Source: a virus (Duplodnaviria; Heunggongvirae; Uroviricota; Caudoviricetes). From it: a stretch of 64,000 nt of DNA. The DNA lies in IMG/VR virus record IMGVR_UViG_2724679538_000004, positions 1 to 64,000 of that record. One strand, written 5' to 3'. This document shows positions 1-64,000 of the stretch, one piece after another (position 1 is the first letter of the stretch; the number at the start of each line of letters is the position of its first letter). The notes beneath the pieces are model-generated. The model had not been told where the DNA came from. It did not search any database and saw only the letters and a program-made list of their open reading frames with translations. Both the position numbers and the translations under genes were made by a program.

Positions 1-275
1 GTGGGGCGAAGCACCGGCAGGCATCCACAAACAGTGAATATTATTCATCCTGTCGTCTTGTTGTAAAAAAGAATGGTTCTGTAATTTATGACAAATCGAC
101 CAACGATGTTACAGCCATTTACACAGGTATCATGGATATGCCTGCTGGTAGAGGAGCACTAAAACTGGAGTTTTCAGTTTCTGCGTCAAACGGGAATTAT
201 CATCCTTCAGCGACTATCAGTGATCTACTAGTCATTGTGACGAAAAAAGCGACGGCTGGGATATCAATTTCATAG
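1..275 (+). CDS. partial CDS (3' end, 5' end outside window); hypothetical, possibly virion structural
   Basis: Frame open from window edge to TAG 273-275 (..SDLLVIVTKKATAGISIS*); directly upstream of tail fibre gene. Confidence 0.4.
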   Translation, partial: GAKHRQASTNSEYYSSCRLVVKKNGSVIYDKSTNDVTAIYTGIMDMPAGRGALKLEFSVSASNGNYHPSATISDLLVIVTKKATAGISIS

Positions 276-303
276 TGGCAAAAAATTATTCTATAGTGGA
301 AAA

Positions 304-321
304 TAGGTAAGTACTTAGCTA
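304..321. repeat. palindromic intergenic motif A copy (TAGGTAAGTACTTAGCTA)
   Basis: Matches recurrent TAGGTAAGTACTTACCTA element; 45 bp upstream of fibre start. Confidence 0.7.
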
Positions 322-366
322 TCAATGTGGGCATGGATGCCCACATTTTAAGGAGTGTAAAAGTAG

Positions 367-3300
367 ATGTGGTACAGGGAAGGTACTATTACCTTTACGC
401 AAGGTAAATCTACGCTTGTAGGCGTAGGCACAAAATGGAATATGACCGAGAATGGCGTTCTGCCTGGAATGATCGTCATTGGGCCAGATAATAAGCTGTA
501 TGAAATTAAACGCGTCATCAGCGACACTAATTTGACGCTAGTCGAGGCTTATACAGGAGAAACCCAAAGCGAAGTCCCTTGTCGTATTATCACCACTTAT
601 GAAGGCGATTTAACGCAATTCAGTGCTCGGTTTACGGCATTAATGAATCGTATGTCTGCCGATTCAAAGACAATGCGTAGTTGGTTGACAGCTCTTGATG
701 AGGTGACAATCGAGCGTGAAGACGGCACAGAAGTGACCGTTAAGCCTCTGATGCAGATCGTCAACGAACATAATGAAAACGTTGAGTGGTATAAAAATAA
801 CACTGACGCAATTGATGCCGCTGGCGACAAAGCTCGTGAAGCTGCGGCCAGTGCTGCGGTGGCAGCAGAAAGCGCCAATACCGCTGGAGAAAAAGCCTCT
901 CAAGCGTCTCAAAGTGCATCCGCTGCGGCAGATTCACAAAGTGCTGCAAGCGCGAGCGCAACTGCTGCAAAAAAATCTGAAACAAACGCAGAATCAGCAT
1001 ATGTAGCGGCAGCAGAATCAGCATCTTTGGCGTCGACTAAAGCATCGGAGGCGTCCACATCTGCGTCCAGTGCCTCTGCATCTAAGGATGCGGCTAAACT
1101 ATCAGAGACTAACGCTTCATCGAGTGCAAACGCGGCGGCATCATTTGCAACAGAAGCTGAAAATGCGTCTAAGGCAGCAAAAACATCAGAGACAAACGCA
1201 AAAGCATCTGAAACGGCCGCCGAACAGAGTGCATCATCTGCAAACAGTTCTAAATCTGCGGCGGAGGCGTCTGCGAGCGAAGCCTCTGCAAGCGCTGATA
1301 GTGCTTCATCAAGTGCAACTGCGGCAGGAAAGTCTGCGGAAAGCGCGTCGACATCAGCGGCAACAGCTACCGCAAAAGCGACAGAAGCGACGGAACAGGC
1401 GACGTTGGCCAGTGCCTCAGTTACAGCAGCAAAGACATCGGAAGAAAATGCTAAGGCTTCTGAAAAAAATGCTCAGGCATCAATGATCGCGGCGGCGGCA
1501 TCAGCTGAATCGGCAGCAAGTTCAGCAACGGAGGCTGTATCTTCTAAGGATGCGGCAGTGACAAAGGCAACAGAGGCAGCAGAGTCAGCTTCAACCGCGA
1601 CAACAAAGGCAAGTGAGTCCTCCGCCAGTGCTGATGCGGCAGCGAAGAGCAAAACAGCTGCGGAATCAGCGGCAACAAGAGCGGAATCAGCGGCTGAACG
1701 AGCAGAAGACATTGCGGCGGCAGTAGGGATTGAAGACGCAACTCTGACAACAAAAGGTGTTGTGAAGCTTAGTAGCGCAATCAACAGCGAGTCTGAGGAA
1801 CTGGCAGCTACGCCGAAAGCGGTAAAGGCAGCCTATGATTTGGCCAACAGCAAGTATACAGCACAGGACTCAACTACAGCTCAAAAGGGACTTGTCCAAC
1901 TTAGCAGTGATATCAATAGCGGTAGCGAAGCTTTTGCGGCCACACCAAAGGCGGTAAAAGCCGCATACGACAACGCTGAAACACGCCTTCGGAAAGACCA
2001 GAACGGCGCAGATATACCTGGGAAAGACACCTTCGTAAAAAATATTGGCGCGGCGAAAGCTGCCAGCGGCAATATCAGCATCGGAGGGGACAGCAATAAC
2101 TGGACGACGGCGCAATTTATCGAGTGGCTGGAGTCTCAAGGGGCGTTCAATCATCCATATTGGATGTGCAAAGGCTCCTGGGCTTACGCTGCCAATAAAA
2201 TCATCACGGATACCGGTTGTGGAAATATACAACTTTCTGGCGCTGTAGTTGAGGTTATGGGGGTTCGAGAGGCTATGACTATTCGCGTCACCACCCCCAC
2301 GACCGCAACGAACGGCGGAACCGTCAAGGCTCAGTTTACCTACATCAACCACGGTGACGCTTATGCGCCAGGCTGGAGACGCGACTTTAATCGAGCTGGC
2401 GATTCAATGTCAGGCCAATTGACTTTGGCGAATATGTCGCAGCCATTAAGATCACCAGGAGGTGGTATATTTGCCAATGATGGCAACGTGTATATCAATA
2501 AACAGGGTTTTGCTGGATGGATCGATGCGCTCTTTTTGAAATTAACCGGAGGCACTTTAACTGGTCCTCTTGCATTCCAAAATTCAAACGGCAAAGCATT
2601 TAGGGTGATGACGGATCATACACCTTCACTAAATACTTATATGCAAATATGGGGTGAATCTTCAAGGCCAACGGTTATTGAATTAAAAGATGAGAAGGGT
2701 TATCACTTTTACAGCCAAAGAAACACTAATGACTCTATTACAATGAGTATTAATGGTGAGGTGGTTTCCAGATCAGCAAATGCTTTCCGTGCCGCATACG
2801 GGAATTATGGCTTTTTCATTCGAAATGACGGAACGACTACTTATTTCCTACTAACCAATTCAGGTGATCCGCTTGGTGGGTGGAGTGGCTTGCGTCCATT
2901 GTACATTAATAACTCAACAGGACGAGTAACGTTTGGAAATGGCGTTGATATTAATAATGGGGCAGTAATTAACGGTGGTGTTGGACTGGGGGTGACTAAC
3001 GCTCTTGGCGGAAACTCTATTGTTTTAGGCGATAATGATACGGGCTTTAAACAGAACGGTGATGGCATTCTTGATGTTTATGCAAATAATGCCCATGTTT
3101 TTCGGTTCGTTAATGGCACGCTGCAAAGCCTTAAGCCATTGAGTGTAACAGGGGATATTGCGTCAAGTGCATGGGTTTACGCCAACCGTTATTCTATCAA
3201 CAGCGGATCTGGCGCATGGATTGATATGCGGAACCAGAACGTCATTTTCGGGAAGAATGCTGTAAGCACAAGCTCTGCACAGGCGTTGTTGAGACAAGAC

Positions 3301-3756
3301 CACGCGGATCGCAAATTCTTTGTGGGGGGCTTGGGAAACAGTCAGTTTGGCTTTTACATGATCAACAACTCACGTACAGCAAATGGCACGGATGCCAACG
3401 CATATCTCCAAAATGATGGTACTTGGGTTTGTGGAGGTAATGGTAACTTTAACGATGTTTATATCCGCTCTGATGCCAGACTTAAAAGTAATTTCGCACC
3501 GATTAAAAATGCTCTGAGTAAAGTGAAAGCACTGAGCGGATTAATTTACGATAAAAGGGAAAATTTTCAATCTAGTACGATTCGCCGTGAGGCGGGGGTT
3601 GTTGCTCAGGAACTCCAAAAGGTTTTACCAGAAGCTGTTTCAGCTTACAAAGATGCAAATGGCGAAGATGTTCTGACTATTTCAAATTCTGCGCAAATAG
3701 CACTTCTTATTGAGGCTGTTAAAGAGCTGGCAGCAATCATTGAACAAAAAATATGA
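367..3756 (+). CDS. tail fibre protein with C-terminal S74-type intramolecular chaperone domain
   Basis: 1129 aa; long Ala/Ser-rich low-complexity repeats; two TPKAVKAAYD phage fibre repeats; C-terminus SDARLKSNF...GVVAQELQKVLPEAV...AVKELAAII matches S74 chaperone pattern; RBS AAGGAG upstream. Confidence 0.85.
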   Translation: MWYREGTITFTQGKSTLVGVGTKWNMTENGVLPGMIVIGPDNKLYEIKRVISDTNLTLVEAYTGETQSEVPCRIITTYEGDLTQFSARFTALMNRMSADSKTMRSWLTALDEVTIEREDGTEVTVKPLMQIVNEHNENVEWYKNNTDAIDAAGDKAREAAASAAVAAESANTAGEKASQASQSASAAADSQSAASASATAAKKSETNAESAYVAAAESASLASTKASEASTSASSASASKDAAKLSETNASSSANAAASFATEAENASKAAKTSETNAKASETAAEQSASSANSSKSAAEASASEASASADSASSSATAAGKSAESASTSAATATAKATEATEQATLASASVTAAKTSEENAKASEKNAQASMIAAAASAESAASSATEAVSSKDAAVTKATEAAESASTATTKASESSASADAAAKSKTAAESAATRAESAAERAEDIAAAVGIEDATLTTKGVVKLSSAINSESEELAATPKAVKAAYDLANSKYTAQDSTTAQKGLVQLSSDINSGSEAFAATPKAVKAAYDNAETRLRKDQNGADIPGKDTFVKNIGAAKAASGNISIGGDSNNWTTAQFIEWLESQGAFNHPYWMCKGSWAYAANKIITDTGCGNIQLSGAVVEVMGVREAMTIRVTTPTTATNGGTVKAQFTYINHGDAYAPGWRRDFNRAGDSMSGQLTLANMSQPLRSPGGGIFANDGNVYINKQGFAGWIDALFLKLTGGTLTGPLAFQNSNGKAFRVMTDHTPSLNTYMQIWGESSRPTVIELKDEKGYHFYSQRNTNDSITMSINGEVVSRSANAFRAAYGNYGFFIRNDGTTTYFLLTNSGDPLGGWSGLRPLYINNSTGRVTFGNGVDINNGAVINGGVGLGVTNALGGNSIVLGDNDTGFKQNGDGILDVYANNAHVFRFVNGTLQSLKPLSVTGDIASSAWVYANRYSINSGSGAWIDMRNQNVIFGKNAVSTSSAQALLRQDHADRKFFVGGLGNSQFGFYMINNSRTANGTDANAYLQNDGTWVCGGNGNFNDVYIRSDARLKSNFAPIKNALSKVKALSGLIYDKRENFQSSTIRREAGVVAQELQKVLPEAVSAYKDANGEDVLTISNSAQIALLIEAVKELAAIIEQKI

Positions 3757-3818: not shown

Positions 3819-4601
3819 GTGTCAATTACAAAAGTTCCTGGATGGATAGGATCATCAGCGGTTTCAGAAACAGGGCAACGTTGGATGAGTGCTGCCCGCA
3901 CCACAGTCCAATTGTCCGCAGCAGGAAATATGTCACAGATGGGTGGTAGGTCAAAAGAGATTTACTACTCAATAGGGGCTAATCACAATTATAACAAAGA
4001 CACATTAATATCATATTTACGCTCCGTTGGCTCTACACCTGTAGTAGTTACTATTACAGGGGATTTAGTTTCTATAAGCAGTACAGTCCCTTGTCTTGAC
4101 TTTCCGGGTGACTTATCAAACTCATATATTAACCTCGTAATTAATAGTGGAGTTACCGTATATGGACGAGGTGGTAACGGGGGTAACAAAAGTAATGGTG
4201 CTGCTGGGGGAACTGCCATAAATAATGGAATTGGGACTCGTTTACGTATTACAAACAATGGAGCTATAGCCGGTGGTGGTGGTGGCGGCGGTGCTACCTA
4301 TGTGAAATCAAGTCTTTCAGATGGAGTATATGGTGGTGGCGGCGGCAGACCATTTGGTACTCGTGGTGCTTCTTCTGGCCCCATGAGTTCAAATTCCACA
4401 GACGCTACTTTAACAGCGGCTGGTAAAGGTGCGGTGTCAAAGGGAACTGGTGGCGCAGGTAATGGTGGCAACGTGGGTGCCGCTGGCTCTAACGGATATG
4501 GTGGTGGGACAATGTATAATGGTGGTGCAGGGGGCAAAGCGGTGGCAGGTAGTGCGCCAACATGGATTTCAGTTGGGTCGATATATGGCGCTCGTGTGTA
4601 A
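3819..4601 (+). CDS. gp38-like glycine-rich tail fibre adhesin
   Basis: GTG start with RBS; N-terminus VPGWIGSSAVSETGQRWMS resembles T2-type gp38 (from memory); poly-Gly runs (GGGGGGG, GGGGG) separating variable segments. Confidence 0.65.
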   Translation: MSITKVPGWIGSSAVSETGQRWMSAARTTVQLSAAGNMSQMGGRSKEIYYSIGANHNYNKDTLISYLRSVGSTPVVVTITGDLVSISSTVPCLDFPGDLSNSYINLVINSGVTVYGRGGNGGNKSNGAAGGTAINNGIGTRLRITNNGAIAGGGGGGGATYVKSSLSDGVYGGGGGRPFGTRGASSGPMSSNSTDATLTAAGKGAVSKGTGGAGNGGNVGAAGSNGYGGGTMYNGGAGGKAVAGSAPTWISVGSIYGARV

Positions 4602-4675: not shown

Positions 4676-4999
4676 ATGTCGAACGAGATGGCGGGAGTTA
4701 CAACTGAACAGGTTGAACGCATCGCCTCAATCGTTGCTCGGGAAGTCGTAGGCAAATTAGGTAAAGAAATACGCGAGGAAATTGGCCAGGAGGTCAACGA
4801 CCAGCTTAAAACCTATTTTGGCGATATGACACCAGCGCAACACAGTATCCAACACTCCAACCTGGACAAGCTTCTTAATCGGCTGGATTCAATTTCAAGC
4901 GGCTTCTTTGGCGGCGTTATTTCAAAAATAACGTCGTTCCTTATTACCGCTCTGATTTTGGGTATTGCTGCTTATGGCGTCAAAAATGGACTGAAATAA
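4676..4999 (+). CDS. membrane protein with C-terminal TM helix; possible holin-like lysis protein
   Basis: GGAGG RBS 5 nt upstream of ATG 4676; single C-terminal hydrophobic helix ITSFLITALILGIAAYGV; position at head of lysis cassette. Confidence 0.35.
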   Translation: MSNEMAGVTTEQVERIASIVAREVVGKLGKEIREEIGQEVNDQLKTYFGDMTPAQHSIQHSNLDKLLNRLDSISSGFFGGVISKITSFLITALILGIAAYGVKNGLK

Positions 5000-5012: not shown

Positions 5013-5705
5013 ATGAACACTCCAAGAGGTATTCGAAACAACAACCCAGGCAACCTTGATAAAGGTTCTCCGTGGCAAGGTTTAGTTGATAATCCGAATG
5101 AGCCGCGCTTTTGCACTTTCATAGATCCTGTTTGGGGGATTCGTGCATTAGCAGTGACGCTTATCACCTACCACGACAAACGTCGGGCTAAGGACGGTTC
5201 CAGCATAGATACTATCCGTGAAGTTATCGAACGCTGGGCGCCGCCTTCCGAAAACAATACGGCCGCATATGTGAAGGAAGTATCGAAAGCAGTAGGCGTT
5301 GATCCAGATACGGTTATCAACTTGCACAGGTACGACACTCTGCGTCCGCTGGTTGAGGCCATTATTCGTCATGAAAATGGCCGCGGTCCTCTCAAGACGA
5401 AAAATACCTGGTATTCAAATGAGGTCATCAACGAAGGCCTTCGTAGAGCTGGTGTTGTGAAGCCAGTGACGGCAGTTACCACTGTTCCAGTCACTAAAGA
5501 GACTGCCGGTGCTACAGTCACCGCAGGCATTGGCCTTGCACAGATTGCTGATGTTATGCCTCAAGTTTCTGCCGCAATGGACAAAGCTCAAGGCCATATC
5601 TCAAGTGGAGATACGGTACGCATCATTTTTGGCGTAGCTACCATCCTTGTGGCGGCGTTCATTGCCTGGTCCCAGGTTCGCAAGCATCAAAATGGATTAG
5701 TGTAA
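5013..5705 (+). CDS. lysis-cassette protein with NNNPGNL motif and C-terminal TM anchor (possible endolysin)
   Basis: AGGAG RBS; conserved-looking N-terminal RNNNPGNLDKGSPWQG; C-terminal hydrophobic segment; immediately upstream of spanins. Confidence 0.35.
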   Translation: MNTPRGIRNNNPGNLDKGSPWQGLVDNPNEPRFCTFIDPVWGIRALAVTLITYHDKRRAKDGSSIDTIREVIERWAPPSENNTAAYVKEVSKAVGVDPDTVINLHRYDTLRPLVEAIIRHENGRGPLKTKNTWYSNEVINEGLRRAGVVKPVTAVTTVPVTKETAGATVTAGIGLAQIADVMPQVSAAMDKAQGHISSGDTVRIIFGVATILVAAFIAWSQVRKHQNGLV

Positions 5706-5707: not shown

Positions 5708-5959
5708 ATGTTTGGCGGCCTGTTTTTCAAAGTTAAATCCGCTTTGTTCACTCTGGCCGCCGTCATTCTCGTCCTTGTCGGCGCATATTCCTATGGTGGG
5801 TATATGGTCAGGCGAAGTATGGAAGAGAAAGAACGGCGGGAAGATAACAAACGTCTTCAAAGCACAGTGGAAGTGGTGAATGAGACGAACAGTCAAATAC
5901 GTCAGAAAGATGCTTCTGCCGTTCATCGTGAGCTGCATGATAAGTGGTTGCGTCATTAA
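5708..5959 (+). CDS. i-spanin (Rz-like inner membrane spanin)
   Basis: N-terminal TM helix then charged coiled-coil-like region; o-spanin ORF begins inside its 3' end in another frame. Confidence 0.7.
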   Translation: MFGGLFFKVKSALFTLAAVILVLVGAYSYGGYMVRRSMEEKERREDNKRLQSTVEVVNETNSQIRQKDASAVHRELHDKWLRH

Positions 5960-6095
5960 GCCACAAACCACCAGCGTGTTGTTCTGCGATGGCGCTGAGC
6001 CTATATATATCAGCAATGACGATGTAATGACCGAAGAAACCGAACGCCAAATCCTTTTTCACAATACGATGGGAGAGAGAGTTTGCGGTTGGTGA
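5910..6095 (+). CDS. o-spanin (Rz1-like outer membrane lipoprotein)
   Basis: Signal peptide MLLPFIVSCMISGC with lipobox ISGC; overlaps i-spanin out of frame. Confidence 0.7.
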   Translation: MLLPFIVSCMISGCVIKPQTTSVLFCDGAEPIYISNDDVMTEETERQILFHNTMGERVCGW

Positions 6096-6131: not shown

Positions 6132-6650
6132 TTATTCGAACAATTTTTCGATAGATTTTGTTGGATAGAACAAAGAACGCTCGTTGTTACCAACAAGCTG
6201 AATAAAGCCTAAACTTTTATAAAAAGCCCTGGCATTATCATTCAACGCCTCAACGAAAAGTCCATGAATACCTACAGCAAGAGAGGCATTGTACACAACG
6301 CGCATTGCATGTGTTACAAGCATTGAGCCAAGTCCTTGACCTTGAAGAGATTTGTCTAAAGCCAGCCTGCCTAAAGTGACACTTGGTACATTCCGATAAG
6401 GCACTTTCTTTTGTTGACTCCTTGAAGGTAAGGCCTCCTTCTCAAAGCAGCTGCCTGACAAAGTGTAATAGCCTAATACTCTTGGCTTTTCTTCTTTGGT
6501 GCAAAGGACATAAGCCCGAAGAATTTTGCCCTCATGCTGTCTTTTCAGGTGGTTGGTTAAAAATGCGTTTAGTGACTCTTCGCCGCAATCAAAACCATTC
6601 AGATCATAATCTTTCTCTCCAGAGAAAATCTCTATCGTCGTATTGCCCAC
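6132..6650 (-). CDS. GNAT acetyltransferase toxin (TacT/KacT-like)
   Basis: 172 aa, GNAT-like motifs (QGQGLG); immediately downstream of DUF1778-like antitoxin in same operon. Confidence 0.7.
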   Translation of the reverse strand: MGNTTIEIFSGEKDYDLNGFDCGEESLNAFLTNHLKRQHEGKILRAYVLCTKEEKPRVLGYYTLSGSCFEKEALPSRSQQKKVPYRNVPSVTLGRLALDKSLQGQGLGSMLVTHAMRVVYNASLAVGIHGLFVEALNDNARAFYKSLGFIQLVGNNERSLFYPTKSIEKLFE

Positions 6651-6657
6651 GAGTAAA

Positions 6658-6927
6658 CTACTCCATGCTTTTCAGACGATCAGCAGCCCGTTTCAGCTTA
6701 TCGTTCGGTGCCGGAGGATTGCTTATAGCATCCATAACCAGATTCCAGGATTCCTCACTTAGAATCAGTCTACGGTGTTGTTCTATAACTTTCGCGGCAC
6801 GTTCAGAGGCACTGCTAACCATGAACTGGGTAATGCTCTGGTTAGACATTGCGGCAGCTTCCTCGATGATGCTTTTATCGTCATCGGTTAATCTCAAATC
6901 GATGCGCTGCTTTTTCAGTGCTGACAT
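6658..6927 (-). CDS. DUF1778/RHH-type antitoxin (TacA/KacA-like)
   Basis: 89 aa, precedes GNAT toxin with 7-bp gap; typical TA architecture. Confidence 0.65.
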   Translation of the reverse strand: MSALKKQRIDLRLTDDDKSIIEEAAAMSNQSITQFMVSSASERAAKVIEQHRRLILSEESWNLVMDAISNPPAPNDKLKRAADRLKSME

Positions 6928-7195
6928 GTGTTCCCCCTGATGGCCAGTGATGCAGGAAGGCCATCAATATCCTCTATTCAAACTGAGTTTTCGACTCAAA
7001 GGTTACTTTACAGGGCTATAGCCCATTGCGTATGTGTCATCAAATTGTGTACGGCAAATTACCGTACCTGTAATATAGAGGCCATTGTTACTTTTTTCAA
7101 CAGACAAATGAACACTGGAACTATCAGCAGTCTCTAACAACCTACCATTTAACCTTTACACCGTAGCCGTAGGCATTTAGGCTATAACGCATATA

Positions 7196-7216
7196 AGAAA
7201 ACAAATTGTTTCAAAC
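7196..7216. promoter_or_regulatory. motif B palindromic operator/promoter element
   Basis: AGAAAACAAATTGTTTCAAAC upstream of parA. Confidence 0.5.
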
Positions 7217-7244
7217 GACAAATATATACGTAAGGGACTCTCCA

Positions 7245-7913
7245 ATGACGAAGATCATTGTGGTTGGTGGAACAAAAGGCGGCCCCGGTAAATCTACCGT
7301 TGCCCAGCAAATCGCAGTTTGTCTCAAGATCAAAAAGAAAAAGAAAGTTCAAATCACCGATATTGATATTCAACGCACCACAACAAGCTGGTGCGAAGAC
7401 CGGCGTCAGAATGAAGAACTTGAGCTAATTCCATTCGCCTATGTGCCGGACGATATCGTTAAACACATCAAATCGCTTAAAGGGCGCTACGATTATGTTG
7501 TTATTGATGCTGGGGGCTTTGACTCCGAAATCCAACGACACGCAATGCTGTTGGCCGATTTCGTCGTTATCCCACTACGTCCTAAGCGTCGGGATTTGAA
7601 GTCGTTGCGTGATATTGATCCGATAGTTGATAACGTTCGCATCATTAACGACAAAGTGAAGGTCCGCGCGGTCATGAACCAATGCCCGGCTCTGCCATCA
7701 CAAGTGTCCCGCATTCTGGCAGCCAAAGAGATCGTTGAGACGTTTGGCATCGAATCTGCGCCAGTCAACCTGTACAACCGCAACGTCTATGACGACGCAG
7801 AAGAATCAGGTCGCTCTATCTTTGAAATGACAGGTAGTGAGCGTGACAAGAAGGCGGAAGCTGAGTTTGAAGAGTTTGTAGATTATCTATTGAGTCTGGA
7901 GGAAGAAGAATAA
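7245..7913 (+). CDS. parA: ParA-type partition ATPase
   Basis: Deviant Walker A KGGPGKST near N-terminus (MTKIIVVGGTKGGPGKST); RBS AAGGGA; followed by small overlapping partner gene. Confidence 0.8.
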   Translation: MTKIIVVGGTKGGPGKSTVAQQIAVCLKIKKKKKVQITDIDIQRTTTSWCEDRRQNEELELIPFAYVPDDIVKHIKSLKGRYDYVVIDAGGFDSEIQRHAMLLADFVVIPLRPKRRDLKSLRDIDPIVDNVRIINDKVKVRAVMNQCPALPSQVSRILAAKEIVETFGIESAPVNLYNRNVYDDAEESGRSIFEMTGSERDKKAEAEFEEFVDYLLSLEEEE

Positions 7914-8272
7914 TGTCCATGAAAATGGGAGACCTTGCAAAGCGCACTGAGCCTACTACACAGGTCAAAAACAACACGCCGTTGCGCCAGCCAGTCAGAC
8001 CACAGGGCCGCCCAACTCGTGGTAAAGAAAAAATCAAAAGCCGTACTATGTCGCTGGAAGACGAGTACTTTGAACTTCTGGAGATGATGAAATGTATCCC
8101 TCGTTTTGAGAAGTTCACACGTTCTGACGTTATTCGTGCAGCCATTTTCCATCTTGCTGAAAAATCGCCGCAAGAAATCGAAGATATCGTGAAACTGAAC
8201 GATGCAATTACAGCTGCCGACGTCACTATGCGTACTGATGAAATCAAACGTGAGCTGATGAAGAAAGGTTAA
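7913..8272 (+). CDS. putative partition centromere-binding protein (ParG/ParB-like)
   Basis: 119 aa, start overlaps parA stop (TAATG); basic N-terminus, position typical of partner of small ParA. Confidence 0.45.
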   Translation: MSMKMGDLAKRTEPTTQVKNNTPLRQPVRPQGRPTRGKEKIKSRTMSLEDEYFELLEMMKCIPRFEKFTRSDVIRAAIFHLAEKSPQEIEDIVKLNDAITAADVTMRTDEIKRELMKKG

Positions 8273-8324
8273 AAATGATGCATTGGCGTTAACGTTAACA
8301 GTGCGCCAATGCATCATAACAGTG

Positions 8325-9332: not shown

Positions 9333-9352
9333 ATAAGTAAGTAGTTACCTAT
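9333..9352. repeat. motif A copy
   Basis: ATAAGTAAGTAGTTACCTAT abutting ATG 9351. Confidence 0.7.
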
Positions 9353-54569: not shown

Positions 54570-54570
54570 T

Positions 54571-54984: not shown

Positions 54985-55457
54985 GGATGATTGCAGCTGT
55001 AGGACGCAACTATGAAATTGGCATAGGAAACGTACTCCCCTGGCGTTGCCCAACAGACATGAAATTGTTCAAGCGGCTAACTCAAAACGCAAGTGTAGTG
55101 ATGGGGCGTAAGACGATGGAAAGTCTGAAACGCCCACTGCCTGAGCGCCACAACCTTGTATTAACGCGCTCACAAGGTCATATGCCGAATGGGTTTTACT
55201 CTGCTTGCGTGGAAGACGTGCTAAAGCTTCCAGAGCCTATCTGGGTAATTGGAGGCGGGCAGATTTATTCAACTCTTATGCCTTACGTAGAAGAAATATG
55301 GCTTTCACATATAGGTGTTGATGTGCCAAACGCAGATGCATTCTTCCCTGTAGAGCTGATGCGCACATTGGGATTTGCTCCAGTGGAGACGGCATATACG
55401 CAACGACAGAGTGAGGAAGAACCTGGATTTTTGCAGATTGTATACAGAAGGGCGTAA
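54981..55457 (+). CDS. folA: dihydrofolate reductase
   Basis: MIAAVGRNYEIG..LPW..P.D...FK..T....VVMGRKT and VIGGGQIY motifs. Confidence 0.85.
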   Translation: MRMIAAVGRNYEIGIGNVLPWRCPTDMKLFKRLTQNASVVMGRKTMESLKRPLPERHNLVLTRSQGHMPNGFYSACVEDVLKLPEPIWVIGGGQIYSTLMPYVEEIWLSHIGVDVPNADAFFPVELMRTLGFAPVETAYTQRQSEEEPGFLQIVYRRA

Positions 55458-56101
55458 TGGATTACCGAATTGGGATCACTGGTGTACAGGGCAGTGGTAA
55501 AACAACCCTGGCAAAATACATCGACAAACACTTTGGCATTCCGTATGTGGATGCCGGGGTTGGCAGACTTATGAGTAGCTTAGGTGTGAAGGTTGGCGCA
55601 AAAATGCCGCTTTACGAGCGTCTTCAAATTCAGATGGAGATTGCAAAGCACATCGAAGTGATTACCCGTGGGGTTGAAGGCTTTGTGATTGATCGAACTC
55701 CTGCTGATGTTATGGCTTACACGCTAGATCTTGTTGGGCAAACCAATGAAGAGAGGTGTATCGAGTTAGCAATCGACATTGAAAGGTTTTGCCACGATAC
55801 GGCAATTTCAAATTTCAATGCCATAGCTGGTTTACGCCCGGGAGTCACATTGACCGACGACGACTTCAAACGTGAACAGAGAGGTTCTCTTGATCGTCTC
55901 TATGTTGCTCGTATAGACGCTCTTATGTGTGGGGAATTAACCAAAATCCACCTGCATCCGCAGAGGGGAGATCTGCAAACATTTATTATTTCAGAGCGGT
56001 ATCGAACAGTCGAAGCAAGAGCCAGATCCGTGTTCAGGATGATTGATAACGCCGTTGAAAAAATTGAAAAAAGATTCAGTGGCCGCGTGACCGTTCATTG
56101 A
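55457..56101 (+). CDS. P-loop kinase, probably (d)NMP kinase
   Basis: Walker A GITGVQGSGKTT at N-terminus; nucleotide metabolism context. Confidence 0.45.
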   Translation: MDYRIGITGVQGSGKTTLAKYIDKHFGIPYVDAGVGRLMSSLGVKVGAKMPLYERLQIQMEIAKHIEVITRGVEGFVIDRTPADVMAYTLDLVGQTNEERCIELAIDIERFCHDTAISNFNAIAGLRPGVTLTDDDFKREQRGSLDRLYVARIDALMCGELTKIHLHPQRGDLQTFIISERYRTVEARARSVFRMIDNAVEKIEKRFSGRVTVH

Positions 56102-56162
56102 AAATTGTTCGCCTCTCCAATATTGCAACAATAGAACTCTCAAAATGGATTAAGGATAAAAA

Positions 56163-56582
56163 ATGTTTACTGAAACGCTGCTGGAAGATGAGCTTGATCG
56201 GAAAACGACAGAGGCTCTTATTCGCGTGGCAGACGAACATTCCAGGTCGCTTCTAAGTGATCGAGAGGCTCGTTTGGTAATTCGCGCCATATTTGAAACG
56301 GTGCAAGGACTTGTTGGAGCGCAAGTTGGTGAAGCCGTTAATTTTGCAATGAATCAATTCAGTGGCGAAGCCAAGAAGCCACTGTTCCCTATGCATCTGA
56401 AGCTCGCGAATGGAACGGTGTTGTATGTTTCTGTTTGTCTTGATAATAACCAAATAAACGTACTCAATGTGACATCTGGCGAATGGCGCGATCCGGTTGT
56501 TTGCGAAAGTGGTGAAGAAGCATTGAAGAAAGCAGCTCAGTTTGTGCGTAGCGCATTGCTGAAAGGCGCGAAGAAGTTGTAA
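56163..56582 (+). CDS. hypothetical protein
   Basis: 139-aa ORF with AAGGA RBS. Confidence 0.45.
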   Translation: MFTETLLEDELDRKTTEALIRVADEHSRSLLSDREARLVIRAIFETVQGLVGAQVGEAVNFAMNQFSGEAKKPLFPMHLKLANGTVLYVSVCLDNNQINVLNVTSGEWRDPVVCESGEEALKKAAQFVRSALLKGAKKL

Positions 56583-56591
56583 GGAGTATTA

Positions 56592-57149
56592 ATGGCTACG
56601 TTAGTCGCTGGTATCGATATTGAGTCTACAGGGCTGGATTTCAGATCTGGTCATAAAATCATTGAAATTGCCATTACTCGTTATGAACTGGAGTCGCAAT
56701 CACACATCGATAACCTTGTAATGCGTTTTAATCCGCGTCGCAGCATTGATCCAAAAGCCCAGGCGGTTCATGGCATTTCTCTCGAAGATCTGGCAACCGA
56801 ACCGTTGCTGTCTGACCATGCAAAAAAGATTGCCGATTACATGGGTACATGTAGTGCATGGGTTGCGCATAACGGCGAAGCGTTTGACATTCCATTCATT
56901 CGTCACGAGTTTTCAGGGTATGGGATTGTATTATCGGACATACCACTAATAGACACTATGCTATCAGGTTTATGGGCTACCGAAGATGGCAAGCGTCCTC
57001 GTCTGGAAGAATTGGCGTTTTCACTTGGTTTTATTTATGACCATAAAAAGGCACACAGTGCATTGTATGACACTGATCTGATGATGAAGTGTTTCTTTAA
57101 GGCAAGAGATAAATACGGTTTTTTCAAACTGCCTTTTGAATCAGTATAA
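56592..57149 (+). CDS. DEDDh 3'-5' exonuclease (DnaQ/epsilon-like)
   Basis: Exo motifs GIDIESTG, HNGEAFD, HSALYDTD. Confidence 0.8.
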   Translation: MATLVAGIDIESTGLDFRSGHKIIEIAITRYELESQSHIDNLVMRFNPRRSIDPKAQAVHGISLEDLATEPLLSDHAKKIADYMGTCSAWVAHNGEAFDIPFIRHEFSGYGIVLSDIPLIDTMLSGLWATEDGKRPRLEELAFSLGFIYDHKKAHSALYDTDLMMKCFFKARDKYGFFKLPFESV

Positions 57150-58438: not shown

Positions 58439-59032
58439 ATGATAGCGGCTGAGAAAATTAAAAAACGAGAGCGTGACCCTTCTCTTAGAGATCTATGGCG
58501 CACACCTCAATGGTTGTTTAACGCTATCCAGAAATACTTAGGTGTTCAATTCGATGTGGACGTTGCCTGCAACAAAGACAACGCTCTTCTTGCAAATTAC
58601 ATAGGCGTGGAGCGTGATGCTTTGAAAAGCAACTGGGGAGAACCGGGCACTATAGCATTCCTAAACCCGCCCTACTCGAAAATTTCCCCGTGGATCGAGG
58701 CCGCAATACGCGAACAAGCACGAGGTGTCACTACAGTTATGCTTATACCACAATCCCTTGATACAAAATGGTATGAGCGGGCCACTGAGCACGCAAACGA
58801 AACGGTTATTCTGTCTGGAGGTCGTGTGGCTTTCGTGGAACCAGACGTTAATTTGGGATTTGTGGAGGTAAACATTAACCCTGGTGGAAGTATGCTTCTG
58901 ATTTTTAGAGGCTTTTGTCAGGGAGCTGGACACACGATTAGAAAAATTCCTCTGGCGGTGTTGAAACAGCTGGGGGGTTATGATCCTGCCAATGTTTCCA
59001 GAAAGAAAAGAACATACAAGAAGGCAGCTTAA
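58439..59032 (+). CDS. DNA N6-adenine methyltransferase (phage Dam-type)
   Basis: Catalytic NPPY motif (FLNPPYS); 197 aa. Confidence 0.75.
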   Translation: MIAAEKIKKRERDPSLRDLWRTPQWLFNAIQKYLGVQFDVDVACNKDNALLANYIGVERDALKSNWGEPGTIAFLNPPYSKISPWIEAAIREQARGVTTVMLIPQSLDTKWYERATEHANETVILSGGRVAFVEPDVNLGFVEVNINPGGSMLLIFRGFCQGAGHTIRKIPLAVLKQLGGYDPANVSRKKRTYKKAA

Positions 59033-59464: not shown

Positions 59465-60044
59465 CATATTATTTATCTTAAGTGATAGGATACTATAGTT
59501 TTCAGTCCATGTACTGGAGACTCGACCTGATGGGTGGAGGGTAGCGTCACTGGCGTCAGGTTTAAAAAAAAGCTCACTACCAGCGTAGAACCGGTGCCGT
59601 TTAGGCGCTGGGGAAGGGGGAACCAGAGTGAGCAGAGACAAGGGTCACTTTATGATTGTCGAGTCTGGGAAGTTCGAGAGGTTGAATCCAGTACTCCCCT
59701 TCATAAAGTGTGGGAAGATCTCGGTTCTGGGATGCTGTCATCCATAACTTCCCAAGCTTAAGCTGGCAGTAGACTTAAGCCATAACTTTTCAGGTTATGA
59801 AACGACCAGGTTGGTGAGGAACTTTTGTACTCACCTCCCTGGGAGGATATTACCTGAAAAGACAACCTCTCACTTCGTTCGAGGTGAACTTCACTCACTT
59901 CGTTCGTTCAGTTCAGATTAATTAAAAACCTCTTCTGGGAAGTAAGGTTTTAAAAAATAAATTTATTATTAATAAGTTATAACACGCACGCGTGTGCGCA
60001 CGCGCGAGGAAAAAATCGGCGCGGCGCTTGATTCAGGAGTTTAT

Positions 60045-60641
60045 ATGACGACGAAGACACCAGCCCGATCGCAAGCAAAAACTCTCAAAAAAGCCAAAAA
60101 CAAAAATTCTCCCCGCACCAATCACACAACGCCTGTCGTAGAGTTCAATCCCCAGCTTAAAACCGTGAAAATCTTTAGTGATGGCTCTTGCCTTAAAAAT
60201 CCGGGTGGTCCTGGCGGTTACGGTATCGTTCTCCAGTATCGTGGTGAGGAACGCGAGTTCTCAGATGGTTTTCATAGCACCACTAATAACCGCATGGAGA
60301 TGATGGGCGCACTCATCGGGCTGGAGCGTTTGAAATATCCATGCAACGTTATTTTGTACTCTGATAGCCAGTATCTGAAAAACGGCATGACACAGTGGAT
60401 GAAATGGTGGAAACGAAATGGATGGATGACTTCTGATAAAAAACCGGTAAAGAATGTTGATCTGTGGAAGCGTCTGGATGAGGCCGCAAGTCGACATAAT
60501 GTTCGCTGGAAGTGGGTTAAAGGCCATGCGGGACATCGTGAAAACGAGATCTGTGATCGTCTTGCTAAGATTGCAGCATTCACTGCCGCTGATACTCCAT
60601 TTAAAAAAGATTTAGGTTTTTTGAATCAAAATAGTAAGTAA
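60045..60641 (+). CDS. rnhA: ribonuclease H (RNase HI)
   Basis: [41 protein letters not shown] motifs; N-terminal basic extension; start set at ATG 60045 after CAGGAG. Confidence 0.85.
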
Positions 60642-61580: not shown

Positions 61581-62006
61581 ATGTTAGGTTTCTTTAAAAA
61601 GAAAACTCGTAAAGCTGTTATCGAAGTCAAAAAAATGGAGAACCGTGATGCGGTTGAAGCCACTGTGTGGGGCGCGTATATGATCTCCTATTCCGATGGC
61701 ACATGCGATGCAAAAGAAATTTCCATTCTTGAGAAAACAATTGCAGCTCTGCCTGCGTTTTCTCCGTTTGCTGCTGAGATAGCCCAGATGAGTGCCAATA
61801 TCCGCGCTCAATACGAAGCCTCACCACGCCGAGCTAATGCTCAAGCTTTACGTGAACTGGCTGATGTGGCCGGGACTAATGATGCAGTAGATGTTCTGTG
61901 TCTGTGTATTGATATTGCCGATCAGGACGGTATTGGCGAGGAGGAAGAGTTGGTGTTGAAAAAAATCGCTCAGGCGCTCCAGCTTTCACTGGATGCTTAT
62001 CTCTAA
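61581..62006 (+). CDS. TerB-like domain protein
   Basis: Two ADG/DQDG...E motifs (YSDGTCDAKEISILEK, ADQDGIGEEEELVLKK) typical of TerB-like fold. Confidence 0.4.
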   Translation: MLGFFKKKTRKAVIEVKKMENRDAVEATVWGAYMISYSDGTCDAKEISILEKTIAALPAFSPFAAEIAQMSANIRAQYEASPRRANAQALRELADVAGTNDAVDVLCLCIDIADQDGIGEEEELVLKKIAQALQLSLDAYL

Positions 62007-62164
62007 TGCTTGAGAGATTCCGGCTTGTGATCGTCATTGCTCTTTTGGTGATGGCGGTGCTGGTGGATTTTACGGGAAAGATCATGTCTGTCATTTCTGA
62101 TGGCGTTCTTGTTGGTCTGGCGATCTACTTCGCTCGCCCTCTAATCCGTAATGCAAAGTGTTAA
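62006..62164 (+). CDS. small membrane protein (52 aa)
   Basis: ATG overlaps upstream stop; hydrophobic LVIVIALLVMAVLV; below ORF-track cutoff. Confidence 0.35.
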   Translation: MLERFRLVIVIALLVMAVLVDFTGKIMSVISDGVLVGLAIYFARPLIRNAKC

Positions 62165-62179: not shown

Positions 62180-63022
62180 ATGGCCCTTTTGTTTCATGGA
62201 GCGCGTATGTTTGAGATTTCAACACTCACTTCTACTACCAAAGGTTTTCACGATAAGCCTTCAATGACCAGTCAGGAGATTGCCGAGTTGGTTGGCAGTC
62301 GTCACGACAGCGTTAAACGCACCATAGAACGGCTGGTAAAAACTGGCGTCATTACTTTTCCACCAATGGTGGAAAAGCCCACCGCAGGTCGCCCTTCGAC
62401 GATGTACCTGTTTGAAGGCGATCAGGGCAAACGAGACAGCATTGTCGTAGTTGCGCAGCTGTCGCCGGAATTTACGGCACGTTTAGTTGATCGCTGGAGA
62501 GAGTTGGAGTCCATATATGGCGCAGCTGTGACTCCAGCGATACCTCGTACCTACAAAGAAGCTCTTGTTCATTTGCTTCATCAGGTTGAAGAAAACGAGC
62601 GCCTTGAAAAGAAAAATGAGGCTTTGGAAGTAGCGCTGTCAAATGCAAAGCCAAAAGCCATTCTGATGGATACGATTTGCGGAACCGCAAATGAACTTTA
62701 CGGGCTTAATGAAGCTGGGCGCATTCTCGGTACATCTGGTGTTGTTATGGGGGAATTTCTGGATTCTCTTGGCGACGTTTATGTAAAGCGCAAATACACA
62801 ACTATCAATCGTCAGTTCTTGAAGGCTTTCATTGACCGTGGCTATGGGAAAAATGTCGTGATCGGAACTGGACGTAACCAGGCAAAATTCACCTTTAAGG
62901 GGCTTTGCTTTGCGGCTGTGAAGCTGATTGCCGCAGGAAAAATAACCGTCAACTCCATCGAATATGAACCGTGCCGGGAACATGTTGAGCGTGAATTGAA
63001 GGGCGCAAAAAGTCTTCATTGA
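62180..63022 (+). CDS. Rha-family phage regulatory protein / antirepressor
   Basis: MTSQEIAELVGSRHDSVKRTIERL matches Rha N-terminal motif; true start may be internal. Confidence 0.55.
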   Translation: MALLFHGARMFEISTLTSTTKGFHDKPSMTSQEIAELVGSRHDSVKRTIERLVKTGVITFPPMVEKPTAGRPSTMYLFEGDQGKRDSIVVVAQLSPEFTARLVDRWRELESIYGAAVTPAIPRTYKEALVHLLHQVEENERLEKKNEALEVALSNAKPKAILMDTICGTANELYGLNEAGRILGTSGVVMGEFLDSLGDVYVKRKYTTINRQFLKAFIDRGYGKNVVIGTGRNQAKFTFKGLCFAAVKLIAAGKITVNSIEYEPCREHVERELKGAKSLH

Positions 63023-63128: not shown

Positions 63129-63698
63129 ATGTGCGAGAAATGCAAAGCGATAGCTGATGAACAAAATGCCCTATTTGAAGAAATGGGTGCTAATGAGCTG
63201 GTAAAAATGTTAGCCATTCTTCGGGGAATAGAAGACGTTTCCATATTTGAGAGAGTGCTAACAGCACATAGTTTTAAGTCTACCTTTGAAGAGCCAATTC
63301 AGGTTGTCGCTTTGGCGCACCATTTTGGTGTTCATTATCTTGCTGAAAAAGAGCGAGCTAAAAAGTTGCAGGCGACTTTGGATATGGTGAGCGAGCCTCA
63401 ACGAACTCATGACGATAACAAGAGTGAGACGATTATTGCTGACAAAGATCGTGAAATTGCCGGACTCAAATCCTCTCTAACAATGTTGATGTCCGCAATG
63501 AACCTGGTGTCATCTCAGGCTGGCTTAAAAATGCCATCACTAAATAGCTATGATCCGATGGCAGTGCGCCAGCTGCTTGGTGCAATGGCTGATCAGCTTG
63601 ACGACACGAAAAATCGTATTGAAGATATGATGCGGGAACTTAGTCATCGTCATAATCTGACAACTCAGCCACATAAAGCTTTTCAAGTATCACATTAA
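63129..63698 (+). CDS. hypothetical protein
   Basis: 189 aa; N-terminal CEKC; AAGGAAAAACACATG initiation region. Confidence 0.45.
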   Translation: MCEKCKAIADEQNALFEEMGANELVKMLAILRGIEDVSIFERVLTAHSFKSTFEEPIQVVALAHHFGVHYLAEKERAKKLQATLDMVSEPQRTHDDNKSETIIADKDREIAGLKSSLTMLMSAMNLVSSQAGLKMPSLNSYDPMAVRQLLGAMADQLDDTKNRIEDMMRELSHRHNLTTQPHKAFQVSH

Positions 63699-63701
63699 TA
63701 A

Positions 63702-63724
63702 AAGGGGATTCGTCCCCTTTTTCC
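63702..63724 (+). terminator. rho-independent terminator
   Basis: AGGGGA-ttcg-TCCCCT TTTTCC. Confidence 0.65.
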
Positions 63725-63768
63725 TTACCTAAGTGAAATTTTAAAAATATTATTCTTTTTATATTATT

Positions 63769-64000
63769 TTAAATACCAGGATTAGATAAATTGTCTATGA
63801 ATGTGCGGGTGGTATTGACAAATCCAGACCCAGAAAAGCGCATAATGAAGCCGTTTTCATCAAAAGTTACGCTCTTTTTATTCATAAATTCATTAAAAAT
63901 ATGATTTGTGCCTGCTCTTGTTGAGGGATACCAATATATTCCCATATCACTGTCGCAGTCCTGATGCATGCGAACCTTTACACCGTTTATTTGCATGGGG
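63769..64000 (-). CDS. partial CDS (3' end; 5' end probably beyond window), AT-rich, hypothetical
   Basis: Open frame reaching window edge on - strand; AT-rich composition. Confidence 0.3.
   Translation of the reverse strand, partial: PMQINGVKVRMHQDCDSDMGIYWYPSTRAGTNHIFNEFMNKKSVTFDENGFIMRFSGSGFVNTTRTFIDNLSNPGI

Follow-up and report, generated by a model that had tools for sequence, protein, structure and literature searches.

What kind of element carries tail-fibre, lysis, replication and nucleotide-metabolism genes side by side with a plasmid replicon and its maintenance genes? The locus that raises this question (hereafter the window) comprises bases 1-64000 of JZWP02000006.1, a stand-alone contig of 109,798 bp from Escherichia fergusonii GTA-EF04. 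We consider it highly probable that the window represents 58% of a temperate siphovirus of ~110 kb that belongs to the SSU5 supergroup and is maintained in this strain as a circular, low-copy, non-conjugative plasmid. The gene content, the synteny, the anatomy of the iterons and origin, the circular topology and the plasmid-only location of the E. coli relatives are shown by the sequence analysis. An earlier note had proposed a phage-plasmid recalling SSU5 and pHCM2; syntenic similarity to known phage-plasmids and the plasmid-only relatives bear out the first part, and gene-by-gene collinearity with SSU5, pHCM2, pSLy3 and CP020118 the second. Scans with Pfam, PHROG and NCBIfam profiles placed every gene class that it named at definite coordinates, and most of the matches were strong.

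The contig terminus cuts gene J, so that the window opens with the C-terminal 90 codons of the gpJ tail-tip protein (3-275, plus strand; Ig_GpJ_C), whereas in the siblings L103 and L104 a full 1518-aa J gene continues uninterrupted into the window sequence. The sibling contig k119_159299 (109,332 bp), which comes from another assembly, shows 98.4-99.5% nucleotide identity to the element and is a circular permutation of it: the holin gene and the gene at window position 63129 map, both reversed, to 44,267 and 95,509, respectively, with joined ends predicting 95,146 for the latter. Two further stand-alone contigs, each of ~109 kb, have other start points. Since k119_159299 is a circular permutation of JZWP02000006.1, the molecule is judged to be circular and without chromosomal flanks, a deduction made via the permuted sibling rather than from joined ends of its own contig. 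Across 5,426 complete E. coli genomes, the segment from the replicon to SbcCD matched plasmids in 323 of 323 cases and chromosomes in none. The size of the element can be set beside those of the SSU5-related types (85-134 kb overall; SSU5_pHCM2, 94-126 kb; pSLy3, 85-134 kb; PMC12977533). SSU5-type phage-plasmids have been found solely outside the chromosome, and mitomycin C induces some of them, with packaging of their DNA (PMC9600943). In the pSLy3 strain, every plasmid had a read depth above 170x against 62x for the chromosome (PMC5009973).

A tyrosine recombinase (23246-24349, plus strand; Phage_integrase 4.2e-9) could in principle permit integration. Together with an excisionase-like regulator in the window, it would fit an ordinary prophage residing in the chromosome of E. 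fergusonii, with a contig break hiding the junctions. The data already contradict this reading, to which we assign a very low probability: the contig begins within gene J and shows no att site there, J is uninterrupted in the siblings, an equal-length sibling contig is circularly permuted, the E. coli genomes offer no chromosomal location, and closed circular plasmids carry this integrase as part of their backbone. Thus, where the earlier note had weighed a chromosomal location or a lack of similarity to known phage-plasmids as the contrary outcomes, we found a stand-alone contig with a permuted sibling and exclusively plasmid-borne matches, and similarity that is extensive and syntenic.

The iteron replicon claimed earlier proved to be centered on a RepA initiator of the Rep3 family and IncFIB pHCM2 type (41470-42525, minus strand; Rep3_N 1.2e-10, Rep3_C 1.3e-4), with ~100% amino acid identity to the RepA of the IncFIB-typed CP020118 and 91% to that of SSU5. 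About 23 iterons flank repA; the iteron 16-mer has 13 matches in the window versus 0.36 expected, all inside 41035-43069. Downstream of repA, ~12 iterons in both orientations form an incA-like control array (40985-41470), and upstream of it lie two tandem origin-like modules (42563-43181, plus strand) separated by an AT-rich spacer. In module A, 6 iterons recurring every 21 bp (42563-42690) are accompanied by a GATC-rich stretch and a perfect DnaA box (42800-42808), while module B has 5 iterons (42964-43070), six GATC sites within 55 bp and a near-DnaA box. The GATC sites of this origin region reach 5 or more per 100 bp, as they do nowhere else in the window, and SSU5 has retained both modules (81% nucleotide identity).

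The partition system of the earlier note held up in part. A small ParA (7245-7913, plus strand) is matched by the AAA_31, MipZ, CbiA and ParA profiles, whereas its 119-aa partner candidate (7913-8272, plus strand; phrog_5111, of unknown function) lacks a verified fold, with a weak aCcr1 (RHH) match (5e-4) and an AF2 model of pLDDT 65, and a search of the window for a parS array (centromere) found none. The toxin-antitoxin pair (6132-6927, minus strand) was recovered by profile matches as a TacT GNAT toxin (6132-6650; Acetyltransf_1 1.3e-8) and a TacA antitoxin (6658-6927; TacA1 1.8e-26); it is present in CP020118 and missing from SSU5, pHCM2 and pSLy3. A second candidate pair (21955-22919, plus strand) consists of an unknown 182-aa protein overlapping a YafO-family toxin (22494-22919; YafO_toxin 4.6e-21). 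The 182-aa protein is matched in 257 plasmid records, and among the matches listed, a YafO-family toxin is annotated under the match in 12 of 15. Convergent with the tyrosine recombinase is an HTH repressor (24344-24736, minus strand; HTH_31), and this pair is conserved in the circular plasmids pHCM2, pSLy3 and CP020118, with SSU5 lacking it. The integrase, the HTH repressor and the YafO candidate, like the four tRNAs, Dam and the csp gene described below, did not feature in the earlier note.

This maintenance set, namely RepA with its iterons, ParA, TacAT and the repressor, argues against the sequence being virulent phage DNA that accompanied the culture through pseudolysogeny or contamination. 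SSU5 was indeed isolated as a free phage, without the integrase/repressor segment, but the GTA-EF04 sequence derives from a purified isolate (PMC4832150) and hundreds of genomes carry the relatives as closed plasmids. We accordingly view a merely accompanying virulent phage as very improbable, and a maintained phage-plasmid as the preferred reading.

The claimed virion and lysis genes (tail fibre, gp38-like adhesin and spanins) are present with profile matches, the o-spanin being a candidate by its lipobox; the virion genes of the window are restricted to the fibre, the adhesin and the last 90 gpJ codons. All lie on the plus strand. The C-terminal third of the 1129-aa tail fibre (367-3756; Phage_fiber_2 1.8e-33, Gp34_trimer 6.7e-24, Peptidase_S74 5.7e-15) has 72% identity with the SSU5 fibre. 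Residues 1-147 of the gp38-type receptor-recognising adhesin (3819-4601; GP38 3.5e-70, Gp38_N 1.3e-14) are common to 87 plasmids annotated 'receptor-recognizing protein', with a variable C-terminus. A holin-like protein (4676-4999; phrog_5093, of unknown function), assigned by position, has 92.5% identity with the protein labelled 'putative holin' in SSU5. It is followed by an endolysin with a hydrophobic segment at its C-terminus (5013-5705; phrog_873 endolysin 2.2e-86), an Rz-like i-spanin (5708-5959; phrog_1026 Rz-like spanin 3.6e-21) and the overlapping lipoprotein o-spanin candidate (5910-6095; lipobox ISGC), which is 75% identical to an Rz1-like ORF of SSU5. The head, terminase and most tail genes are located beyond the window, and we assume their presence from the 109.8-kb extent and the relatives.

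As the main virion block falls outside the analysed window, the element might be a defective (cryptic) phage-derived plasmid with intact replication and segregation that no longer forms infectious virions. pHCM2 and pR444_B have long been termed cryptic plasmids, and one SSU5-like E. coli element was not inducible, yielding no virion DNA after mitomycin C (PMC9600943). We regard such decay as unlikely, if still worth considering. SSU5 shares 54 genes with the window, and for 53 of these, the lysis genes among them, the alignment spans at least 87% of the length with no internal stops; CobT is the exception (64% aligned), and the fibre and adhesin match SSU5 in part. Further, IS elements are absent from the window, and identical fibre and adhesin proteins occur in several independent samples and metagenomes, fitting a transmissible element.

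Every member of the phage-type replication, recombination and nucleotide-metabolism set named earlier was matched, all on the plus strand. A DnaB-like helicase (10150-11490; DnaB_C 1.1e-13) and a weakly matched primase (11639-12754; Toprim_2, dnaG 5.9e-9), with respectively 94% and 91% amino acid identity to SSU5, precede an ATP-dependent DNA ligase (16013-17335; DNA_ligase_A_M 5e-13), a glutaredoxin (21582-21827; Glutaredoxin 4.2e-11), a CobT-like VWA protein (25250-27358; CobT_C 3.3e-85, CobT 2e-22), a CobS-like AAA_5 ATPase (27452-28687; AAA_5 5.3e-16) and a DnaE-type polymerase alpha subunit (28868-32386; DNA_pol3_alpha 1.2e-72, with finger, HHH_6 and PHP domains). A recombination block (34339-38237) comprises a UvsY-like protein (weak, 3.8e-4), a gp32-type SSB (34817-35890; gp32 9.5e-66), a FEN (35900-36895; 5_3_exonuc_N 9.2e-26) and a RecA-like recombinase (37164-38237; RecA 2.5e-42). 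The block from SbcD to RuvC (44168-48691) holds SbcD (44168-45253; Metallophos 8.4e-10), SbcC (45478-47394; AAA_23, SMC_N), a 242-aa protein with no function assigned and a RuvC-like resolvase (48122-48691) matched by phrog_159 (9e-58) and by nothing in the Pfam scan. The nucleotide-metabolism block (48766-57149) encodes NrdA (48766-51081), NrdB (51151-52329), a MazG-like protein, ThyA (53466-54569), DHFR (54981-55457), a P-loop kinase-like protein and a DnaQ-like exonuclease (56592-57149); beyond it are a Dam-type N6-adenine methyltransferase (58439-59032; Dam 9e-38) and an RNase H (59994-60641; RNase_H 1.2e-45).

Between these blocks lie accessory genes. The slot adjacent to parA is variable, with relatives carrying differing candidate defence genes; here it holds a GIY-YIG protein, a PD-T4-3-like candidate defence gene (8325-9098, minus strand; LEM-3_GIY-YIG 2.4e-7, PADLOC PD-T4-3 5.3e-24). 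A tRNA cluster of Asn, Tyr, Thr and then Ser (18923-19902, plus strand; ARAGORN, Rfam) is split by a P1-derived upl/plp remnant (19158-19811; 87-90% nucleotide identity to P1 trnA-trnT-plp-upl). A 450-aa membrane protein (20084-21436, minus strand; phrog_18168) lies in a region of low GC (0.336 at 20001-22000) and is at best Abi-like (putAbiC 0.0026, under the cutoff), with no match in the PADLOC scan. A cold-shock gene with a cspA-type 5'UTR thermoregulator (32665-33083, minus strand; CDS 32690-32905; Rfam RF01766, 185.7 bits) is homologous to a region annotated cspG in relatives. A TerB-like and DUF3927 pair (61581-62164, plus strand; TerB 1.3e-7) is homologous to P1 tciA/tciB (84% amino acid identity to TciA, 43% to TciB), and a Rha-family regulator or antirepressor (62180-63022, plus strand; Phage_pRha 2.3e-7) is 84% identical to the SSU5 'anti-repressor Ant'. 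Small P1-derived modules thus sit inside the SSU5-type element.

Synteny at 78-90% nucleotide identity links the window to circular, non-mobilizable Escherichia plasmids of 107-115 kb, which number in the hundreds, and to the phages SSU5, Cyrano and CMS-2020a. Gene-level collinearity covers 54 of 74 genes in SSU5 (mean amino acid identity 78%), 56 in pSLy3 (83%) and 63 in CP020118 (86%). By these comparisons the element is nearer to the E. coli clade, with a pSLy3-like backbone and a pHCM2-type IncFIB RepA, than to SSU5 or pHCM2 themselves, which refines the kinship drawn earlier while keeping the family. CP020118 (E. coli AR_0104 plasmid unitig_6, NZ_CP020118.1; 111,212 bp, circular, IncFIB, non-mobilizable) keeps the gene order, is 99.3% identical in nucleotides over the RepA/iteron segment and also has the gp38-type adhesin, csp, the integrase/repressor pair and TerB/DUF3927. 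However, its backbone is merely ~85% identical, it has a KAP NTPase in place of the GIY-YIG gene beside parA, its tRNA/Grx slot occupant is just 32% identical to that of the window, and the Sel1 gene, the YafO pair and Rha are missing from it. Salmonella phage SSU5 (NC_018843.1), a proven siphovirus, is the type member of the supergroup. It shares the lysis cassette, ParA with its 119-aa partner, and the replisome, recombination and nucleotide-metabolism blocks, but its adhesin is a different one, its slot beside parA is filled by a DUF2971 gene, and it lacks the extra tRNAs, csp and TerB. The E. coli subgroup reference pSLy3 (NZ_CP015915.1; 114,472 bp) shares the TerB/DUF3927 pair typical of that subgroup, but its initiator belongs to the RepB family (rep_cluster_488), it carries a type I restriction-modification system as well as a group II intron, and it lacks gp38 and csp. 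Over its first 50 kb, pHCM2 of Salmonella Typhi CT18 (NC_003385.1), of the same IncFIB replicon type, preserves the integrase/repressor pair, glutaredoxin, the CobT/CobS-like pair, DnaE and the recombination block along with their order, but at lower identity (most shared proteins 80-95%), without gp38 and with PhoH and other cargo. P1 (NC_005856.1) shares the phage-plasmid lifestyle and the replicon logic of an initiator between origin and control iterons, with DnaA boxes, GATC methylation sites and its own Dam; it is, however, a myovirus with unrelated virion and backbone, and the shared DNA is limited to the small accessory modules.

From homology and anatomy we infer how the two states might work. 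In the plasmid state, RepA would bind the 21-bp-spaced iterons immediately upstream of repA and open the origin with its DnaA box and GATC cluster, methylatable by the element's own Dam, while the ~12 downstream iterons would keep the number of copies down through titration or handcuffing, the way RepFIB and P1 do. ParA and its 119-aa partner would segregate the copies, TacAT and perhaps the YafO pair would kill element-free cells, the tyrosine recombinase would most likely act in multimer resolution, and the neighboring HTH repressor would hold the lytic genes off. In the lytic state, the element would supply its own replisome (DnaB-like helicase, primase, DnaE, DnaQ-like proofreader, gp32 SSB, ligase, FEN and RNase H), recombination enzymes (RecA-like protein, SbcCD and RuvC-like resolvase) and dNTPs (NrdAB, glutaredoxin, ThyA, DHFR and MazG-like protein). 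Holin, endolysin and spanins would then lyse the host, and adsorption would depend on a fibre that is anchored by J and bears an exchangeable gp38 adhesin at its tip. The element is an ordinary representative of the well-known SSU5/pHCM2/pSLy3 family of gut bacteria.

Profile searches of about 70 ORFs recovered every gene class named in the earlier note, which had read the window as an SSU5/pHCM2-like phage-plasmid with virion, lysis, replication and nucleotide-metabolism genes alongside a plasmid maintenance set. Phage structural, lysis and replication genes are thus found with plasmid replication and partition genes on one replicon, the structural genes within the window being the end of gpJ, the fibre and the adhesin. 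The last 90 codons of gpJ (3-275) are followed by a fibre of 1129 aa with Phage_fiber_2, Gp34_trimer and Peptidase_S74 domains and by a gp38 adhesin (3.5e-70), whose N-terminal 147 residues are common to 87 plasmids and whose C-terminal part is variable. After gp38 come the lysis genes, coding for a holin-like protein, an endolysin and an Rz-like i-spanin; the o-spanin is probably encoded by a lipoprotein ORF that overlaps the i-spanin and contains an ISGC lipobox. The endolysin (5013-5705) has a hydrophobic, membrane-anchor-like C-terminal end (IIFGVATILVAAFIAWSQV), and its copy in a relative is annotated as a 'membrane protein'.

The replication complement comprises a DnaB-like helicase, a primase (weak matches), an ATP ligase, DnaE, a DnaQ-like exonuclease and RNase H. 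That for recombination comprises a gp32-type SSB, FEN, a RecA-like protein, SbcD, SbcC and a RuvC-like resolvase (PHROG match only). Nucleotide metabolism is represented by NrdA, NrdB, glutaredoxin, a MazG-like protein, ThyA, DHFR and a P-loop kinase-like protein. The thymidylate synthase (53466-54569, 367 aa) matches its Pfam profile of 266 positions in two stretches, suggestive of an insertion, and the SSU5 gene is of equal length. Maintenance genes code for a small ParA, a TacT/TacA pair and a Rep3-family RepA. Further, a CobT-like VWA protein adjoins its AAA_5 partner, and the element encodes Dam.

Comparison with known elements lent the phage-plasmid reading strong support, with extensive and syntenic similarity to SSU5 (phage NC_018843.1), pSLy3 and pHCM2, known members of the family, and to CP020118 (the circular IncFIB plasmid unitig_6 of E. 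coli AR_0104, NZ_CP020118.1). Megablast returned hundreds of Escherichia plasmids, 107-115 kb in size and non-mobilizable, and the phages CMS-2020a, Cyrano and SSU5, all in synteny with the window. Out of 74 window genes, 54 have counterparts in SSU5 (mean 78% aa identity; 78% nt over 45.6 kb), 56 in pSLy3 (83% aa; 83% nt over 47.4 kb) and 63 in CP020118 (86% aa; 85% nt over 53.8 kb). A wGRR-like proxy, computed from the window genes only, gave 0.57 for SSU5, 0.63 for pSLy3 and 0.73 for CP020118, all of them collinear with the window, and the first 50 kb of pHCM2 have the same gene order. This relatedness in gene repertoire places the element in the SSU5 supergroup of phage-plasmids (Pfeifer et al. 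2021; tyPPing 2026). It is closer to the pSLy3-like clade of E. coli than to either SSU5 or pHCM2, with a replicon of the pHCM2-type IncFIB kind.

By exact protein matches, the window corresponds to bases 1-64000 of JZWP02000006.1, a contig of 109,798 bp in assembly GCA_000968885.2, as the identical positions of the tail-fibre gene (367-3756) and RepA (~41.5-42.5 kb) in the two attest. Its source, Escherichia fergusonii GTA-EF04, is a chopped-kale isolate whose MiSeq reads were assembled with SPAdes; its genome announcement is silent on the element (PMC4832150). The G+C content of the window is ~0.45 versus 0.499 for the genome (PMC4832150). Phage-plasmids in E. fergusonii have been noted earlier in the literature.

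The start of JZWP02000006.1 falls inside gene J, and in two siblings (99.9% and 98.4% nt identity) a complete J of 1518 aa continues directly into window base 1. A sibling contig, k119_159299 (109,332 bp), from an unrelated ENA assembly, is 98.4-99.5% identical across two sampled segments. In it, the holin gene lies at 44,267 and the counterpart of the gene at window position 63129 at 95,509, both reversed. Proceeding 58,453 bp downstream of the holin gene passes beyond position 1 in that record; if its ends are joined, the position expected is 95,146, just 363 bp off that observed. The fit of these markers to joined ends implies that k119_159299 and JZWP02000006.1 are differing linearisations of one circle, the circularity being argued from two markers in this sibling. 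Two other stand-alone contigs (109,146 and 109,631 bp) differ again in their start points.

The earlier note had named a location inside a chromosome, with flanking att sites, as a finding that would speak against its reading. Chromosomal flanks are absent from both JZWP02000006.1 and k119_159299, and a search of 5,426 complete genomes of E. coli placed the repA-sbcC segment at 323 sites in 249 of them, all 323 on plasmids and none chromosomal. The permutation in the sibling and the plasmid-only E. coli locations argue, indirectly, for a circular extrachromosomal state. A prophage integrated in the chromosome was rejected; a contaminating virulent phage was likewise considered and rejected. 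SSU5-type elements have been extrachromosomal in all finds, with several induced and packaged (PMC9600943). At 109,798 bp, the contig is of a size seen in SSU5-related types, which span 94-126 kb for SSU5_pHCM2 and 85-134 kb for pSLy3 (PMC12977533).

The RepA protein (41470-42525, minus strand) is a Rep3-family initiator (Rep3_N 1.2e-10; Rep3_C 1.3e-4), with no match among PDB sequences. Kluyvera, Buttiauxella and Y. pestis have relatives of it at 90-91% identity, and Rahnella, Pantoea, Erwinia and Xenorhabdus at 62-77%. A 16-mer iteron consensus has 13 matches in the window at up to 3 mismatches, versus 0.36 expected by chance, all within 41035-43069, and 22 of the 28 window matches to a looser core motif fall in 40988-43059. 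Iterons flank repA on both sides: 11 of them, spaced at 21 bp, lie upstream, and ~12 in either orientation lie downstream (40988-41467). Six of the upstream iterons are immediately before repA (42563-42690, 21-bp spacing), followed by a GATC-rich stretch and the sole perfect DnaA box in the window (42800-42808). A spacer of 70% A+T separates this box from a second set of five iterons (42964-43070), beyond which come six GATC sites packed into 55 bp, and a near-DnaA box; in a scan of the whole window, this was the only site with at least 5 GATC per 100 bp. The origin-like module of iterons, GATC cluster and DnaA box is present in tandem duplicate (42563-43181), with the copies ~380 bp apart. 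SSU5 retains both modules (81% nt identity), which makes the duplication a trait of the family. In RepFIB and P1 oriR/incA the initiator gene lies between origin iterons and control iterons, accompanied by DnaA boxes and methylation sites, and the repA region of the window appears to share this arrangement.

Over 40963-43290 the window and CP020118 share 99.3% identity, versus ~85% for the flanking backbone, and CP020118 is typed IncFIB by MOB-suite; by this proxy, the replicon of the window would be of the IncFIB type. At the replicon position pSLy3 has a RepB-family initiator. This different initiator and the disparity between replicon and backbone identity imply that replicon modules are exchanged within the clade, the segment behaving, from these comparisons, as an exchangeable cassette. 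Exchange of replicon modules has been described in the phage-plasmid literature (PMC7969092).

The ParA protein belongs to the small (222-235 aa) Walker-type versions devoid of an N-terminal DNA-binding domain, as in type Ib partition systems, with AAA_31, MipZ, CbiA and ParA matches. Its gene (7245-7913) is translationally coupled to one for a 119-aa protein (7913-8272), whose role as ParA partner we infer. A single-sequence AlphaFold (AF2) model of the latter (pLDDT 65) has a disordered basic N-terminus followed by helices. Foldseek against PDB returned nothing at E<=0.001, phmmer against PDB returned chance matches only, and an RHH (aCcr1) match was sub-threshold (5e-4). A parS repeat array was not found in 6900-8400; a perfect 14-bp inverted repeat at 8275-8317 may be a terminator. 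In the TacAT pair (TacA1 1.8e-26; Acetyltransf_1 1.3e-8), a type II toxin-antitoxin operon on the minus strand, the TacA/DUF1778 antitoxin precedes the GNAT toxin by 7 nt. A second toxin, of the YafO family, has its start overlapped by 10 nt by a 182-aa protein with no family match (21955-22919). The latter matches 257 plasmid records, and most among the matches listed lie beside or over a gene annotated as a YafO-family toxin. The usual antitoxin partner of YafO is YafN, and the 182-aa protein may be an undescribed YafO antitoxin. Between yafO and the integrase gene, four exact tandem copies of TCAAAATC (22953-22984) may constitute a protein-binding site.

Several components have no SSU5 counterpart: TacAT, a GIY-YIG protein, a Sel1-repeat protein, a 450-aa low-G+C membrane protein, the glutaredoxin, the 182-aa protein with YafO, an integrase/repressor pair, a cold-shock gene with its thermoregulator UTR and a TerB/DUF3927 pair. 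The GIY-YIG protein matches the PD-T4-3 defence family (5e-24, PADLOC). It occupies a slot flanked by the parA operon and the phrog_2500 gene (window 8273-9365), the occupant of which differs among relatives (L113:10227-11933; L091:32677-33435; L104:9657-10754; L109:5881-6558). CP020118 has a KAP NTPase (matching PDC-S49) here and SSU5 a DUF2971 protein (matching PDC-S31); siblings have unknown proteins of 365 or 225 aa, or an empty slot. This slot looks like a defence hotspot. The 450-aa protein (20084-21436, minus strand) lies in an island of 33.6% G+C and has hydrophobic N-terminal segments and a sub-threshold putAbiC match (0.0026); in relatives, the proteins that occupy its slot share 32% identity with it or are unrelated. 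PADLOC gave no match for this protein, the 182-aa protein, YafO, the SPFH protein, the CobT/CobS-like proteins, TerB or TacT.

A bolder reading takes three variable slots, one next to parA, one separating the primase from the ligase block and one separating the tRNAs from the integrase, as dedicated anti-phage defence hotspots, with at least one window occupant being an undescribed defence or addiction system. Candidates for such a system are the 450-aa membrane protein, the pair of Sel1-repeat protein and adjacent 164-aa protein, and the pair of 182-aa protein and YafO; on this reading, the P1-derived modules would further support ongoing gene flow between unrelated phage-plasmid families. 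We consider this reading rather doubtful. The element, not characterised before, is best described as belonging to a large family that is already well documented, with nothing in the window departing from the known traits of that family.

Two segments are held in common with P1, namely 18919-19811, with trnA-trnT, a plp remnant and upl (87-90% nt identity), and 61581-62164, with tciA/tciB coding for TerB-like and DUF3927 proteins (TciA 84% aa identity). These point to exchange between phage-plasmid families. A fourth tRNA (19816-19902), called as Ser-TGA by ARAGORN, has a long variable arm, scores below the Rfam tRNA gathering threshold and weakly matches tRNA-Sec (41 bits); a sub-threshold STnc100 sRNA match (19666-19838) overlaps it. 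The cold-shock gene (71 aa; 32665-33083, minus strand) comes with a complete thermoregulator 5'UTR of the cspA type (185.7 bits in Rfam). Relatives in E. coli and E. albertii have the gene too; SSU5, pSLy3 and the first 50 kb of pHCM2 gave no match. Immediately before the CobT-like gene lies a perfect inverted repeat of 12 bp (25218-25250; CTGTACGAACAG / CTGTTCGTACAG) that may be a protein-binding site; a LexA box was ruled out, as the spacing is wrong.

Homology and anatomy together suggest a model for the two phases of the element. In lysogeny, RepA and host DnaA would fire the iteron origin, the iterons downstream of repA would cap copy number, ParA and the 119-aa partner would partition the copies, and TacAT would kill plasmid-free segregants. 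The tyrosine recombinase, a backbone gene in closed circular relatives, would most likely act in multimer resolution, and the convergent HTH repressor would keep the rightward replication operon off. Lytic growth would draw on the element's own replisome, recombination enzymes and dNTP supply, with lysis via holin, endolysin and spanins and adsorption via the fibre with its gp38 tip.

Outside annotation, the relevance of these findings is small: a contig from a 2016 E. fergusonii draft, whose mobile elements went uncommented, can now be labelled as a complete-length SSU5-supergroup phage-plasmid. Such elements transfer genes through infection instead of conjugation (CTX-M-15 among them, in close relatives), and recognising them in food isolates is useful for surveillance. 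The mosaic, which joins a pSLy3-like backbone to an IncFIB replicon of the pHCM2 type and to P1-derived accessory modules, with alternative candidate defence genes in one slot across relatives, illustrates the modular exchange that earlier work has described for phage-plasmids.
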